A DNA stretch of 64,000 bases from Eledone cirrhosa. Taxonomy: Eukaryota. Below are positions 1,852 through 59,866 of this stretch, piece by piece. The notes beneath the pieces are model-generated. The model did no database searches, was not told the DNA's origin, and worked only from the letters and a program-made list of their open reading frames with translations. The translations under genes and the position numbers were made by a program. The stretch lies in NCBI GenBank assembly GCA_964016885.1, contig OZ024744.1, forward strand, positions 31,682,001-31,746,000. The letters run 5' to 3'. Numbering within the stretch: the stretch's first letter is position 1; each line of letters starts with the position of its first letter.

Positions 1852-2018
1852 AGGGACTACAGATCAAATTCCTCCTATCTATCGCAACACTTTATTCATT
1901 ATAGGTCTAACGCGACATATAGAGAAAAAAACAACTAACAAAACAGGGGACACGTAACTTGGTCTTTTATTATATATATATACATGTGTGTCCGTGTATG
2001 TATATATATATATATATA

Positions 2019-2280
2019 GAATTCTATAAGAACCAAACATCCATGATTTCAGCAAACAGGGGGAGTAGTTGGCTTTGATAAGCATCAATAAAGGCGAAAC
2101 AAGGCCTTGTCGGCTTTATCTCCCTCTGTTTGCTGAAAATTAAAGTAAGTGAATCTGTCACTACTCTAAAACAATAGCATAAGGTCTTCGAAATGCTTTT
2201 AATTAAGCATACAGTGTATTGCAAAATACACTATATATACATTCATATATATATAGCTATTTCAGAGCACCAATTCTAAT
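2019..2280 (+). mobile_element. Retrozyme-like non-autonomous element (family R1), partial monomer between (TA)n tracts
   Basis: Closely similar to 13041-13315; contains a hammerhead; no ORF. Confidence 0.75.
2047..2139 (+). ncRNA. Type I hammerhead ribozyme, U3-A8 core variant
   Basis: ggct TTGATAA gc..gc GAAA caaggccttg TC ggct; palindromic stem III; stem I extended by tttcagcaaacagggggag/ctccctctgtttgctgaaa. Confidence 0.8.
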
Positions 2281-11883: not shown

Positions 11884-12469
11884 TATTGTTATACTTTGGG
11901 AGGGTCATGTTGCCAATAAGAAACACACGCACCAGTTGCTTTCACTTCAATTTATTATTATAATAAATTTATAATAAATTTATAAATTTATAAATTTCTG
12001 GTTGGTTGGTTGGTTCCACAACCAGATAGTTGTTTATATATTGTCATAGTTCTTTCGTCACACACTCTGTGACCTCTTCAGTGACTGGGGATTCCTTTCT
12101 TTGTTTCTGTGCCTCTCCTTTGTTCTGTCCTACGCCATTTTGTTTCTGTGTGAAACAAAATGGCGTAGGACAGAACAAAGGAGAGGCACAGAAACAAAGA
12201 AAGGAATCCCCAGTCACTGAAGAGGTCACAGAGTGTGTGACGAAAGAACTATGACAATATATAAACAACTATCTGGTTGTGGAACCAACCAACCAACCAG
12301 AAATTTATAAATTTATAAATTTATTATAAATTTATTATAATAATAAATTGAAGTGAAAGCAACTGGTGCGTGTGTTTCTTATTGGCAACATGACCCTCCC
12401 AAAGTATAACAATATCGGTTTCAACACACGATTTCAGATAAAGAATCTTGCTAAACAAATTCAAAAACG

Positions 12470-12470
<1 letters not shown>
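11884..12470. mobile_element. Palindromic PLE pLTR insertion (263-bp arms 11884-12414, 5-nt loop)
   Basis: Arms are reverse complements about position 12149; the right arm runs into [22 protein letters not shown], homologous to the PLE ORF start at 32882. Confidence 0.92.
12213..12255 (+). ncRNA. Type I minimal hammerhead ribozyme (mirror copy on minus strand 12043-12085)
   Basis: gtca CTGAAGA g gtcaca gagtg tgtgac GAAA gaac TA tgac. Confidence 0.8.
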
Positions 12471-12532
<62 letters not shown>

Positions 12533-12676: not shown

Positions 12677-12846
<170 letters not shown>

Positions 12847-12865
12847 TATATATATAAATATATAT

Positions 12866-13320
12866 ATAGTGTATTTTACAATATACTGTATGCTTAATTA
12901 AAAGCATTTCGAAGACCTTATGCTATTCTTTTAGAGTAGTGACAGTCTCACTTACTTTAAATTTTCAGCAAACCAAATCTAATTTTCAATATCTGCTTGA
13001 TCGGCAACCGCTCTGTATAATCACTTGCTGAGTATTACTAGAAATTCTATAAGAATCAAACATTCATGATTTTTCAGCAAACAGGTGGAGTACTTGGCTT
13101 TGATAAGTACCAATCAGTACGAAACATAGCTCTGTCGGCTTTATCTCCCCTTGTTTGCTGAAAATTTAAAGTAAGTGAGACTGTCACTACTCTAAAACAA
13201 TAGCATAAGGTCTTCGAAATGCTTTTAATTAAGCATACAGTGTATTGCAAAATACACTATATATACATTCATATATATATATATATATAGCTATTTCAGA
13301 GCGCCAATTCTAATTTTCAA
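12866..13320 (+). mobile_element. Retrozyme-like element R1: ~331-bp monomer (12973-13320) with an inverted partial copy at its 5' side (12866-12973)
   Basis: ccaa(a/t)tctaattttcaa at 12973 and 13304; internal (TA)n; hammerhead; no ORF. Confidence 0.8.
13071..13164 (+). ncRNA. Type I hammerhead ribozyme, U3-A8 core variant
   Basis: ggct TTGATAA gtac caatca gtac GAAA catagctctg TC ggct; extended stem I ttttcagcaaaca/tgtttgctgaaaa. Confidence 0.8.
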
Positions 13321-13442
13321 CATATATATATATATATAATTATATATATGTATAATTATATATGAATATATATATATTTATATAATATATACATATATAA
13401 TTATAGATATATATAATTAGAAATAGATATATATAATTAGAA

Positions 13443-14858: not shown

Positions 14859-14921
14859 ATTTTATCTGATGAAAGCACACCATAATTTAACTTGGTGTCC
14901 TTGAAATATGTATAATGAAAT
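14859..14921 (+). ncRNA. Type I hammerhead in solo pLTR (14800-15055) of the family at 50957-54371
   Basis: attttat CTGATGA aag c acacca..tggtgt c ctt GAAA tatgta TA atgaaat. Confidence 0.8.
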
Positions 14922-32330: not shown

Positions 32331-33775
32331 TTAGAAGGCCAAGACTAAACAGAAAGAATGAATGGAATAACAACAACACCCAAACAAACAACACTGACCT
32401 AAGAGAAGTATAAATAAATAAATATATACATACACAAGCACAATAACAACAAACACATATAAACACACACTAGTAAAGATAGAACACAGTCACCCAATCA
32501 CGAACACACATCAAACAAAACACTATACACACACACAAACGTATGCACAAAGAAGACAAAATAAAATAAACAAACAAACAAATAAATAAATAAATATATA
32601 GACAGACTAAATAAAAATGGCGTAGACATACAATGTAACGGGAGGAAACAATAGCACCACTGACGATGTTGCAGATGTGCAACGAAAGAACTTTGATAAA
32701 CTATATATATGTGTTTGTGTCTATATTGTATCTGTATTATTTTTGACCGTCAGTAGGCCAATGGCAACATTGAGGACCGAATAAATTAAATTAGATTACC
32801 GATATAAAAGACACAAGCGAAAAGCGAAAACCAACCAAACTGGGTGTGTTCTGTTATTAATTCTGGCAATATTACACAAATATGACCCTGCCCAAGTATA
32901 ACAATATTTGTTTCGACACACGATTTCATATAAAAAACCTCGCAAAACTAATTTATCGCCGTTATGGCATTAGCTTGTGCCAAGCTGAAAGGTTATTGAA
33001 AGACATTGTTTTCTGTTATATAAAAACTACAATAACAACAGAACAAATCCGCTTCTTAAAACACTGTGTTTCCTCCAAAATATACACAACAAACATATCA
33101 AAACAAGTAAATAATTTATTATTGAACAAAGCACAAGCTGAACGACTAAAACACACAATAACAGTTAATATGAAAAGAACAACATACACAAAAGTCAACG
33201 AACTTTACAGACAGAAACGCATTAACGGTAAGGAAGTCCAAAATCTCACCACACCAAACGAAAGGGATGACTTCATGAGCGTCATCCGACGCGAAACGAA
33301 ATACGCCCGAAACGAATGCTGTAGGCATTTCAATAAGAAATTAGAATGGATGAATAAGAAAAAACTACAAGAAAGGAAAATAGAATATTCTCAAAAATAC
33401 CCAGATAACATCAACAATATCCGTATGACTGATGTAGAACTACCTGAAGAATTTACCAATGACCACACAGTAAATATTTATGGGAACACTTTAATCAGTG
33501 AACAAGAACAACAAATCCTGCAGCTACCACCAAAATTTGCCATCTACAAAAAGATTAACCCTATTGAGTGCAAAACGGAGCTGGAAAAGTGTTTCACAAA
33601 AATACGTTGGAGTGCAAAAGTAAACAACAACAACAACAATAATAACGGTAGTAGTAATATAAACAATAACTCTGAGTATAGAAATAACAGCCATAACAAT
33701 AACAATAGCAGGAGAGTGAGAAATAGTAATAATGGTAATAATACTAACGATGGACAGAACAACAACAACAACCAC

Positions 33776-33812
<37 letters not shown>

Positions 33813-36579
33813 GAAACATTAACCACAGACACAGCAGCAGCGACCACAGTAGTAATAACGGTAACAATACGAACAACAACAACAATAACCACAGTGGTAA
33901 TAATGGAAATAATACATGTAGCAACATTAATGAAAGACAACAAAAACAAGAAACATAATAAAAGTAACAACCACAATGGTAGAAATAGCAGTAACAACAA
34001 GAATAACGGTGAAGTAAACAACAATACATCTAGCAATCATAACAATAATAATAATGCTAATGATAGGAACAACAACAACCACCAAGATAACAATAATAGC
34101 AACACACACAACTATGACGATAGATATAATGACAACCCCTTAGAGAAACTATTTTTCAACCCAGCTGACAAAACATATAAGATGGGTAATATCTATCCTA
34201 CGAGGTTACCCTTTAATAAAAGAGTTTGCATACCACAACAAATAGATGACGAGACAGAGGCACAGTTCACCATAGCTAGAAATAAGATTAGACAAATAGT
34301 AGACCGGTATACTAAGAGACAGAGCAGACCAGAGGCCCAACAACTTGGGAGGAAACCTGTAGAAGGCTTGGTTAGCCTCAAGCAGCGCACAAGGGATGGT
34401 GAGGTAGTATGTCTACCCACGGATAAGTCTGGTAGGATGTCAATAGATAGCATGCCGAACTACATCAAGGCTATGCAACCCCACATCACCAACACGAGCG
34501 AAATTGCACAGCAAACACATGATGTGAGAGAGAAAATCCTCAACGCTCACATGATGATGTGGACTGACATCCTAAAGCCAAGCAGACGCACTGCCAACAA
34601 CTTCCAGGCGTCTAACAATGGCATACCACCCTTGTATGGGCTCCGCAAAGACCACAAGACAGTCGACGACCCGACAACAGGACCACCAACAAGACCCGTA
34701 TGCGGAGCTAATATAGCTAGCAACTACAGGATCTCCTACTTACTCTCAATGGTTATACGCCCCATAATCAAGATGTCCCCAGATGTATGTGACAGTACAG
34801 AGGGCCTCCTCAGCAGAATCAGTGAGTGCAACAAAAACAGGAACCTATCCAACTGCATAATAGGCAGCATGGATGTGGTATCACTGTACCCATCCATTAA
34901 CATTGATTTTGCTGTGGAAAAATGTGTGGAGTTGATCATTGAGAGTGAGGTGGAGTTCTGCGACGTCGACACAGACGAACTGGGCCTCCTACTTAGACTT
35001 ACTTACGACACTGACTACCTAGACAGCCATGACCTTAGACGTTTCTGCCCTAATAGACCCATAAGAGGTAGACCCCCACCATAACCTCAATAGCAAAAAA
35101 GACTCCCATGGGAAGGTGGATTGGGTGGACCAAAGCTATACGGACCCCCCAAAACAATGATCAGGTAAGAAAAATGGTCGCACATGCAATAGGGGCTAGT
35201 ATCAAAACTACCCTAAAGGGCCTCATATTCAAGTTCAACGAGAAGATCTACACCCAAAATGAGGGAGCAGCCATTGGCGTCAGCATAGCTGGTGATGTTG
35301 CCAAACTTTTCATGGTATGGTGGGAAAGGAGACTTAAAGATCTCCTTAATGAGAGCTCCATAGACCTCATCATGTACTCTCGTCACGTAGACGATATCAA
35401 TATAGTTATAAGAACATCCCCACTAGAGAGCACTAACAAGTTTGATTTAGAACGTAGCACAATGGAAAGCATCCAGCAGATAGCTAATTCCATACACCAG
35501 AGTATAACTGTAATTATCGACTTCCCTTCCAAACACCCTAACAATAGACTGCCTGTATTAGACAGGGAACTCTGGATTAACACTATAGACGAGAGAGCCC
35601 AAATTCTCCACTCACACTATGCTAAACCCATGGATACTCAAAAACACAGCAATGTCCAGTAGTGCTAAGTTTAATATTCTGATCGCAGATTTGGTACGAG
35701 TGATGAAGAATGTGTCCCGCATGTGCGACCCAACAGAAATGGAAAGACACATCCAACACTTCATCAACCGCATGCAGTTCTCTGGCTACAACCAAAGAGA
35801 CAGAGTCAGAGTATACGAAGGAGCCATGGAGAAGTATAGAACTGGACATGAAAGGAATTTGCCCATTATATAGGAGCAAATCATCGAATAGCTTAGATAG
35901 GGCTAGACATAAGATAGAGAAAGCCACCTCATGGTACAACCAGAGATACCAGAGTGTCATGTTTGTGGACGCTACCCCTGGAGGGAAATTAGCTAACCAG
36001 TGTAGAAAGGCCCTGAGAAAGACCCACTTAAAGATTAAGGTGGTAGAAAAGCCAGGAACCACCATAAAATCCCTGATCAGCAAAACCTACCCCTTTAAGA
36101 AAACCCACTGTACTAATAGGAAATGTATCATATGTAAGGTAAACCCCCGGATAAACTGTAAAACTAGAAACGTAGTCTATAGCATAAGATGTACAGAGGG
36201 TACTTGCAGAAACATGACAACAACATACATAGGTGAGACAGCTCGTAGCATAGGTGAAAGGATAGACCAACACTGGGTGGAACTAAAAGGACGAAAAAAC
36301 GGGTCAGTACTATACGAACATGCCACACAACAACACGACGGTAACATAGACAACATAGAAATTAGAATAATATCTAAACATAGAAATGACCCAACAGATA
36401 GGCAAATCATAGAGGCCAGTGAAATAGAATTTAGAAGGCCAAGACTAAACAGAAAGAATGAATGGAATAACAACAACACCCAAACAAACAACACTGACCT
36501 AAGAGAAGTATAAATAAATAAATAAATACATACACAAGCACAATAACAACAAACACATATAAACACACACTAGTAAAGA
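32331..36579 (+). mobile_element. Near full-length PLE with upstream partial tandem (pLTR); frameshifted
   Basis: ORFs 32882-36513: LPTDKSGR, MDVVSLYPSI, GAAIGVSIAGDVA, SRHVDD, CTNRKCIIC, YIGETARSIGERIDQH; 32331-32479 directly repeats 36431-36579. Confidence 0.93.
32658..32695 (+). ncRNA. Hammerhead-like motif in pLTR (copy at ~42470-42507)
   Basis: ca CTGACGA t gttgca gatg tgcaac GAAA gaac TT tg; homologous to 12213-12255 with compensatory stem II changes. Confidence 0.65.
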
Positions 36580-38854: not shown

Positions 38855-38910
38855 ACTGCTATATATATTTCGATGATAGCCATTGAATGTCTTTGACCTC
38901 ATCAAGCAGT
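38855..38910 (-). ncRNA. Type I hammerhead with C3>U change
   Basis: Minus strand actgc TTGATGA g..c GAAA tatata TA gcagt. Confidence 0.62.
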
Positions 38911-39509: not shown

Positions 39510-39512
<3 letters not shown>

Positions 39513-39945
39513 CTTCCCTTGCTTTTATCGAGAATCTAATTGTAATACGTGACGTATTCTATTCTATAGCGATTAGGTCTTCAAAATGTTTATTATAAAC
39601 ATACAGAATATTTTCGAATATTCTATGTCTATATTCACATATATATCGCTATTTCAGAGCATTTATTCCAATTTCTAATTTCTGCCGGACCGGCAACCGC
39701 TCTTTCAAACCAGTTCCTGTACACAGCTAAGTATTCTATAAGTCTCTAGCTGTGTCATTCTCGATAAAAGCACTGGATATGTAGTCCTGAAGATTTCTAA
39801 TAAGAATGAAACGCGTAGATTACTTCCCTTGCTTTTATCGAGAATCTAATTGTAATACGTGACGTATTCTATTCTATAGCGATTAGGTCTTCAAAATGTT
39901 TATTATAAACATACAGAATATTTTCGAATATTCTATGTCTATATT

Positions 39946-39955
<10 letters not shown>
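39510..39955 (+). mobile_element. Retrozyme-like element R2: 310-bp monomer present as ~1.4 tandem units
   Basis: tacttcccttgcttttatcgagaat at 39511 and 39821 (offset 310), repeat ~135 bp long; hammerhead at the junction; no ORF. Confidence 0.85.
39757..39845 (+). ncRNA. Type I hammerhead ribozyme with extended stem I
   Basis: gtagtc CTGAAGA tttc taataa gaat GAAA cgcg TA gattac; attctcgataaaagca/tgcttttatcgagaat 16-bp extension. Confidence 0.85.
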
Positions 39956-39978
<23 letters not shown>

Positions 39979-50959: not shown

Positions 50960-51474
50960 GCAAAAGTTCTATTTAAATTGTTGGGATACAACAAGCAAAT
51001 ATTTTTATAACTGATATAAAGCACTCGACAAATATTTGGAGTAGATATACGATATTAATAAATGGAAACTATATTTATAAAACCATATTTATTTCATTAT
51101 ATATATTTCAAGGATACCAAGTTAAATTATGGTATGCCTTCATCTGACAAAATACAATATATAACAGTTTTATAAATAGACATTGACGTTCCCTTTTAAA
51201 AAGTGACCGATGCTTTTGGAGGCCATCAGGATAGTGGTTTGTTTACTTTAGTAAGTCATAGTGTTAAGAGTAAGTAAAAAGATGGAGAGAGAGAGAAACG
51301 TGGAGAAAAGAAAGGGAGAGATAGATAAAGAAAAAGAAGAAAGGAAAAAGAAAAGAGAACAGAGGAAAATAACTTAAAATAACTTAAAATTACTTAAAAT
51401 TATGGAAAGAGAGAAGTGAGGTTATCGATTGGTTTAAAGAAATTAAATATAACTATAATAATAAGTTTATTCAG

Positions 51475-54514: not shown

Positions 54515-55052
54515 ATTGTGTTATACTTTGGAAGGGTCATGCTGCCAATAAAAACACACGCACCTGTTAGTTTCCACTTCAATTTATTATACATTTTCGC
54601 TTGGTTGCTTGTTTGCTTCAATAACTGGGTGATTGTTTATATATTTTCAAATATCTTTCGTCACACATTCTGTGACCTCCTCAGTGACTGATTCCTTATT
54701 TTGTGCCCCCTCCTTTGTTCTGTTCTACACCATCTTGTGTGCTGTGTGCTTGGTTTGCACATGCGTTACATCCGGGTGTGTGTCTATTTTTATTTATTTG
54801 TTCTATCTGTGTGTTCCTGATTTGTTTTGTTAGTTAGGTTTTTGTGTGTGTCTGATTTGTTTTGTTAGTTTGGTTTTTATGTGCCTCTGTGTGTCTTCAT
54901 TTTGTCCTTAATTACTAGTTGTGATGTTGCTATTCCACTCATGTTTTCTGTTTAATTTTGGTTGGAGTTCTTTTATGTTTGTTGCCTCTGTGATTTGTCT
55001 GAGCATTGCATCTTTTCTGTGTGTGGATATCATTTTTACCTCTATGTCCTCT
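54515..55052 (-). mobile_element. PLE 3' end + pLTR related to 11884-12470 and 32331-36579
   Basis: Minus translation MISTHRKDAMLRQITEATNIKELQPKLNRKHEW; degenerate HHR CTGAGGA g gtcaca..tgtgac GAAA at ~54650-54688; ends in the MTLPKYN start. Confidence 0.82.
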
Positions 55053-55071
55053 AATGTGTGTGTGTGTGTGT

Positions 55072-59772: not shown

Positions 59773-59866
59773 GTCCAGCAGAAGCAAGGGGGGACAACCG
59801 TCTATGCATTTCAGGCTAACTGGCCTTCGTCAGGACGGTCCCTCCGACCGCTTGCGACTGCTGGAC
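59773..59866 (-). ncRNA. Canonical GC-rich type I hammerhead ribozyme with long stem I
   Basis: Minus strand accgtc CTGACGA aggc cagtta gcct GAAA tgca TA gacggt; stem I extends to gtccagcag/ctgctggac. Confidence 0.9.

Follow-up and report, generated by a model that had tools for sequence, protein, structure and literature searches.

A dispersed, probable retrozyme family of Eledone cirrhosa with a U3-A8 hammerhead core and Penelope-type insertion ends

Background

The DNA analysed here, referred to as the window, is a stretch of 64,000 nucleotides from Eledone cirrhosa (assembly GCA_964016885.1, contig OZ024744.1, positions 31,682,001 to 31,746,000, forward strand). The element at its positions 12837 to 13320 is a two-armed insertion of a 322-base repeat, probably a non-autonomous retrozyme. 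The repeat carries a fixed U3-A8 type I hammerhead, for which self-cleavage in the dimer is predicted, and was likely copied into (TA)n by the proteins of a Penelope-like element (PLE). What is observed is the family with its fixed core, stems that covary, arms in tandem and inverted order, two fixed ends separated by about 30 nt, flanks of (TA)n and no coding frame.

The element is a fresh example of a published core variant and of a published kind of element; it is no new class and leaves the chemistry unchanged. Natural hammerheads with U3-A8 have been reported, and the exchange of C3-G8 for U3-A8 is compensatory, with constructs reported to be active in vitro (PMC3088659, citing its ref. 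32). The available text of PMC4209133 describes U3-A8 hammerheads in the Cercyon PLEs of Schistosoma mansoni, with about 1,300 matches and a dedicated search descriptor, and weak cutting by the minimal hammerheads of Schistosoma PLEs that were assayed. Animal retrozymes and their proposed link to PLEs have likewise been published (PMC7229834; 10.64898/2026.07.22.740005). The original prediction, which saw a rare compensatory variant in the core, was right about the compensation but overstated the novelty, since a high-copy animal PLE family had already been reported. Our literature search, whose coverage of subscription papers is poor, found no U3-A8 literature beyond PMC3088659 and PMC4209133 and, among the matches listed, no cephalopod retrozyme study by title. 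The present analysis adds a sister family with a canonical core and a set of mixed insertions.

Results

The window locus is a single two-armed insertion in (TA)n with staggered ends as found in PLEs. Its features and those of the related copies are as follows.

12837..12973, minus strand: inverted 5'-truncated arm without hammerhead; outer end within the internal (TA)n (the 'short' end)
12975..13320, plus strand: main arm, about 1.05 retrozyme units; tail at its end, then flanking (TA)n
13071..13099, plus strand: 5' side of stem I with its distal extension; UAC triplet six bases ahead of the core
13100..13106, plus strand: hammerhead core U3-U4-G5-A6-U7-A8-A9; U3-A8 in 739 of 751 family matches
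13107..13120, plus strand: stem II (4 bp) and 6-nt loop; two of four pairs with a two-sided change between subfamilies
13121..13136, plus strand: GAAA, near-palindromic stem III (13125-13134) and UC; cut predicted after 13136
13137..13164, plus strand: 3' side of stem I with its distal extension
13266..13289, plus strand: internal (TA)n, which forms one of the family's two fixed arm ends
13290..13320, plus strand: Penelope-type tail of about 30 nt between the two fixed ends
2017..2280, plus strand: second copy, of subfamily B; one arm only, ending in the tail; core at 2075-2081
2082-2095 and 2100-2109, plus strand: stem II of the second copy, with one mismatch, and its perfectly palindromic stem III
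39512..39960 (limits approximate), plus strand: copy of a 310-bp sister family; canonical C3-G8 core at 39787-39793

The minus-strand arm shares 94-97% identity with 13153-13289 in reverse complement. A retrozyme unit had been proposed at 12866..13320; its retrozyme-like nature stands, but the first 110 bases belong to the inverted second arm, and the two-armed structure had been missed. The proposed monomer of about 331 bp describes the window copy, which has a longer internal (TA)n, but not the family, where 11 natural tandem units measure 315-327 bp with a mode of 322 bp. The internal (TA)n itself had been noted correctly. A 17-bp terminal redundancy had also been claimed; 12975-12991 and 13306-13322 match at 15 of 17 positions and this is no family feature. 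Since the 5' starts of 139 arms are spread over the whole unit, the redundancy merely reflects an arm just above one unit in length, and we reject its interpretation as a target-site duplication or LTR. The insertion carries a single hammerhead; the predicted active dimer is therefore impossible in cis, and on its own the window insertion would be a poor cutter.

The family is a non-coding 322-base repeat with hundreds of copies dispersed in the 3.0-Gb genome. Each unit holds one type I hammerhead, units form tandem arrays of up to about 14, and neither a coding frame nor LTRs are present. A DNA search of the genome had best full matches of 96-98% identity among the 40 of 2,185 candidates that were scored. 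The median divergence of copies from the majority sequence of their subfamily is about 2% (61 and 28 segments). The element sequence is present in contigs of three runs of one sample with undefined run type, which attests to presence only.

Two loci (L033, L042) are long, more diverged arrays in a single direction with 13-14 or more units, and in L042 the array adjoins a PLE fragment in inverted orientation. The insertions L036/L037 and L032 recur with identical structure at two places and represent segmental duplications that hold the element.

The motif TTGATAA was confirmed at 13100-13106 and 2075-2081. At both places it is followed by stem II, GAAA, stem III and TC, in the frame of a type I hammerhead: three stems round the core, an open stem I, GAAA and UH. 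The 97-nt regions fold much better than shuffled sequences (z -4.5 and -7.0). The Rfam model Hammerhead_HH9 (RF02275) spans its whole length at 13082-13159 with 17 bits (E 0.2); this misses the gathering score of 52, which lowers membership in the Rfam family only. As for the loop I-loop II contact residues, the 6-nt CA...A loop II and the UAC triplet agree with the HH9 model; subfamily B has UAG instead. Where a canonical stem I has 6 bp, only four standard pairs are present, followed by two U-U oppositions. A whole-window Rfam scan had no hammerhead among the 150 of 277 matches listed, all of which were microsatellite look-alikes. As had been predicted, a CTGANGA search of the window recovered neither U3-A8 copy.

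Genome-wide, a hammerhead pattern with positions 3, 7 and 8 left free gave 751 exact matches and its reversed control none; being limited to copies with the flanks of the U3-A8 family, it sets a lower bound on copy number. Position 3 is other than U in three matches and position 8 other than A in nine, with no overlap, so that 739 of 751 have U3-A8. The Watson-Crick pair between positions 3 and 8 is thus made by other letters: C3-G8, expected under a CTGATGA consensus that had been named beforehand as the contrary outcome, occurs in none of the 751. With a free 7-nt core, 49 of the 56 motifs at 40 further loci have U3-A8. The shuffle scores, the full-model HH9 alignment and the 751 matches against none in the control establish that the motif is not due to chance. 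We confirm U3-A8 as the family-wide, compensated norm of a type I hammerhead. The substitution rate is 0.013 in the core and 0.032 in the distal stem, a contrast that we set aside because copies were picked by the motif.

The commonest exception is A8 to G (seven of the nine non-A8 matches), which keeps a wobble pair. Such U3-G8 cores are found at L048:2435-2851 (twice in tandem) and at L044:2957-3053.

From 97 extracted hammerheads, 92 were aligned after exclusion of five duplicate or gapped rows, and 79 of them are distinct. In this 92-row alignment 93.8% of the cells are paired. Among the distinct rows two pairs of stem II show two-sided changes (U-A 48, C-G 28; C-G 45, U-A 25), as do two pairs of the stem III palindrome (G-C 25, A-U 13; A-U 52, G-C 21), well above slid controls in both stems. 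Six pairs have a two-sided change, a count reached in 21 of 500 shuffles. Covariation across copies, proposed beforehand as a check, is present, and it consists of few subfamily-founding events inherited by many copies, not of many independent ones. The related statement that the stems of the two window copies differ yet still pair is borne out by the compensatory changes in stem II, but the second copy does not have the 2-bp gc/gc stem that had been described: its stem II is 4 bp long (GCAT/ATGC in its subfamily) with one decayed base.

The sister family offers a further comparison. Its copy at 39512-39960 is diverged but homologous to the U3-A8 unit. The two align end to end with a score of 220, against a maximum of 50 in 100 shuffles, and with 51-85% identity per 40-nt bin, highest around the insertion ends; the cores are in register and both arm ends are common to the two. 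A DNA search with the sister copy as query gave no result, and the family was recovered by pattern, with 13,657 matches genome-wide; C3-G8 was found in 100 of 100 among the matches listed. Because this collinear family has C3-G8 in register, covariation of positions 3 and 8 is visible between the sister families; the direction of the change is not shown. A canonical-core pattern with the same type of stem III had no match in the genome, and hence no close C3-G8 ancestor was found.

These results bear on whether the repeat could be satellite or MITE-like DNA of the ordinary sort, its likeness to a hammerhead being accidental. Such DNA might well show inverted arms, tandem units and an Rfam score below threshold. 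The full hammerhead geometry speaks against it, as do random 5' truncation and asymmetric fixed ends, and the stem covariation and the in-register sister with a canonical core largely refute this explanation, which we consider hardly credible.

Stem III is a 10-nt palindrome or near-palindrome across the family and suits a double-hammerhead fold: in 11 natural tandem pairs the predicted dimer-active fold lies 0.2-8.4 kcal/mol above the minimum, a pair of monomer-active folds 7-21 kcal/mol. The window subfamily has a U-C mismatch in stem III, and the pair is open in 39 of 79 rows of a sample biased to this subfamily. Its inter-copy helix has a predicted probability of 0-0.03, against 0.88-1.0 in four of five pairs from other subfamilies. 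Circular units adopt a compact predicted fold (z -4.9 to -6.7, three tested). In the predicted monomer fold a helix between the 5' half of stem III and GGCUUUG (the end of stem I plus U3-U4-G5) hides the core, with a median probability of 0.55-0.99 in the four main stem III classes. Folding thus predicts that the dimer cleaves and the monomer is blocked. Changes in the blocking helix are one-sided only, and its U3 pair is broken in 32 of 79 rows; the alignment is no proof of selection for this helix, nor does it exclude such selection. A C3-G8 core introduced in silico weakens the helix in two main stem III classes and not in the other two. Owing to this split, selection of U3 for a monomer off-switch is not supported.

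At the level of the family, the U3-A8 hammerhead is real, compensated and probably functional. It is unlikely that the family is a PLE-mobilised element whose hammerhead is by now weak or dead and which is carried in uncut multimeric transcripts. Several observations would suit this explanation: arms extend through the cut site over as many as about 14 units and show no pile-up of starts there (12 of 139 in the first 20 nt), stem I is weak, the monomer is predicted to misfold, and in vitro the hammerhead is dispensable for PLE insertion (PMC11167929). The U3-A8 matches are also about 18-fold fewer than those of the C3-G8 sister, although the two patterns are of unequal strictness. Pairing nevertheless persists in three or more types of stem II and in several stem III palindromes, all with the core kept, which requires that RNA structure was under selection when the subfamilies arose, and positions 3 and 8 have both been altered and yet still pair. 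A probably functional hammerhead remains our preferred reading.

Each arm ends at one of two places, the internal (TA)n or a point about 30 nt beyond it. In a first sample, from which six loci with extra motif matches were left out, both ends could be classified at 18 two-armed loci, and 17 of these paired one short with one tailed end (15 of 16 if L011, two separate insertions, and L037, a duplicate, are dropped). A second sample of 40 further loci on chromosome 1 gave 15 of 20 (p 0.02), and pooled, 30 of 36 two-armed loci combine a short and a tailed end (p 3.5e-5). PLE insertions are described as having truncated arms in inverted orientation, a single tailed end (30-40 bp) and a bias to (TA)n (10.1101/2021.04.23.441226), and in vitro the tail equals the distance between two start sites of the reverse transcriptase (RT) (PMC11167929). 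The ends of the element support, at the genomic level, the proposal that PLEs mobilise retrozymes. An excess of A>G over T>C changes, taken as a scar of RNA editing, was not significant (44 versus 30, p 0.16).

PLE sequence lies head to head at the 5' junction in four of 92 loci. One (L004/L054) has an RT-GIY-YIG frame (Pfam RVT_1, E 7e-4) with a C-x4-C-x2-C motif ahead of the GIY-YIG domain, a feature reported for Neptune and Nematis (10.1101/2021.04.23.441226), and L048 has the endonuclease end and pLTR of the same PLE family. L035 represents a second family, with GIY-YIG above the Pfam cut-off and short scrambled retrozyme pieces at the join. A third family (L017/L061) was identified by eye from its translation and hammerhead. 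Within the element no RT-GIY-YIG frame was seen at the loci surveyed, and the 40 loci of the second sample had no head-to-head PLE coding arm. Three PLE families and several unrelated repeats adjoin the junctions, and deletion between neighbouring insertions could give the same mixed joins. Given these points and the absence of coding arms from the second sample, we reject the mixed junctions as proof of one partner.

In L054, L035 and L048, the three mixed insertions whose ends could be classified, both arms have the long end (two) or both the short end (one), unlike in pure insertions; such matching ends fit deletion or independent priming.

Other hammerheads and PLE pieces were observed in the window. 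A two-armed solo pLTR insertion of the L035 PLE family (11884-12477) has a (TA)n tract in common with the retrozyme insertion; it carries a minimal canonical-core hammerhead (12217-12223), and its two ends lie about 59 nt apart. A near full-length, frameshifted PLE (about 32331-36570; RT, GIY-YIG), its 3' end replaced by other sequence, has 85-94% protein identity to the PLE arm that is joined to the retrozyme in L004/L054. A 3' fragment of an L035-type PLE (GIY-YIG end, pLTR) lies at 54519-55055 on the minus strand. Minimal-type hammerheads with a canonical core and long stem II are found at 14866 and 54272 (plus strand), with related pieces near 51100 and 36800 (minus strand), and their motif heads the PLE frame in L017/L061. 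The type I hammerhead at 59833 (minus strand) is canonical, its stem I has an internal loop, and it belongs to another retrozyme-like family; a relative adjoins the 5' junction in L084. The hammerhead at 38905 (minus strand) has U3-G8, a one-sided change; its relative in L062 has C3-G8.

The two-armed, tailed structure recalls solo pLTR insertions such as that at 11884-12477, and U3-A8 is already known from Cercyon pLTRs (PMC4209133). The unit might accordingly be the pseudo-LTR of an undiscovered autonomous PLE and its copies truncated remnants. We consider this very unlikely: in 92 loci no PLE frame leads directly and in the same sense into the unit as its pLTR, the arrays are perfect 322-bp head-to-tail repeats, the hammerhead is canonical instead of minimal, and the unit has no homology to the pLTRs of two local PLE families.

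Discussion

The preferred reading, a non-autonomous retrozyme mobilised by PLEs, can be put as a sequence of putative steps. Multi-unit loci would be transcribed, and neighbouring hammerheads would pair via the palindromic stem III and release unit-length RNA, with U3-A8 presumably preserving the Watson-Crick pair of positions 3 and 8. The monomer, possibly circular, might then adopt an inactive fold. A Penelope-like RT/GIY-YIG protein could nick both strands of AT-rich DNA, and reverse transcription may begin at two sites within the RNA, so that each side of the break receives an arm.

A bolder version of this reading takes the U3-A8 family for an active ribozyme circle gated by dimer formation, with the stem III palindrome as off-switch of the core, and the mixed insertions for records of one PLE protein dimer copying two different RNAs, one into each side of a break; we regard it as rather improbable. 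If true, it would make the family and its C3-G8 sister a natural experiment that links core chemistry to transposition success and names the mobilising enzymes.

Independently of this, the family is a clean, high-copy animal example of U3-A8 in a full-size hammerhead, and the canonical sister allows kinetics side by side. CUGANGA searches and searches at the Rfam threshold undercount retrozymes. The ends of the element point to candidate mobilising enzymes.

Compared with the metazoan non-LTR retrozymes of PMC7229834 and 10.64898/2026.07.22.740005, as far as the available text describes them, the element has the same non-coding tandem unit of 150-450 bp with one type I hammerhead each, low GC, dispersed copies and arrays, a compact predicted circle and PLEs as proposed mobilisers. 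Dimer cleavage is known in the axolotl retrozyme; here it is predicted. The U3-A8 core sets the element apart, the term being absent from the main text of PMC7229834, as do, relative to the same available text, the 10-nt palindromic stem III and the two-armed, staggered-end insertions in (TA)n.

With the Cercyon hammerheads, according to the accessible part of PMC4209133, it has in common the covariation of the core, high copy number in an animal, the Penelope context, the palindromic helix III and a dimer model. Those hammerheads are minimal and heterogeneous and lie in pLTRs of coding elements, whereas the unit described here is homogeneous and non-coding, with a stem II of 4 bp capped by a 6-nt loop, while its stem I contains an internal loop. 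Relative to PLEs in general the element lacks an RT or endonuclease frame and homology to the two local pLTRs. It resembles PLE insertions, as reported in the available portions of 10.1101/2021.04.23.441226 and PMC11167929, in its partial tandems, inverted 5'-truncated arm, tail of 30-40 bp at one end, AT-rich or (TA)n targets and two presumed RT start sites. Finally, the U3-A8 hammerheads in the accessible text of PMC3088659 are several scattered natural examples, whereas in E. cirrhosa this core is fixed in a family of several hundred copies.
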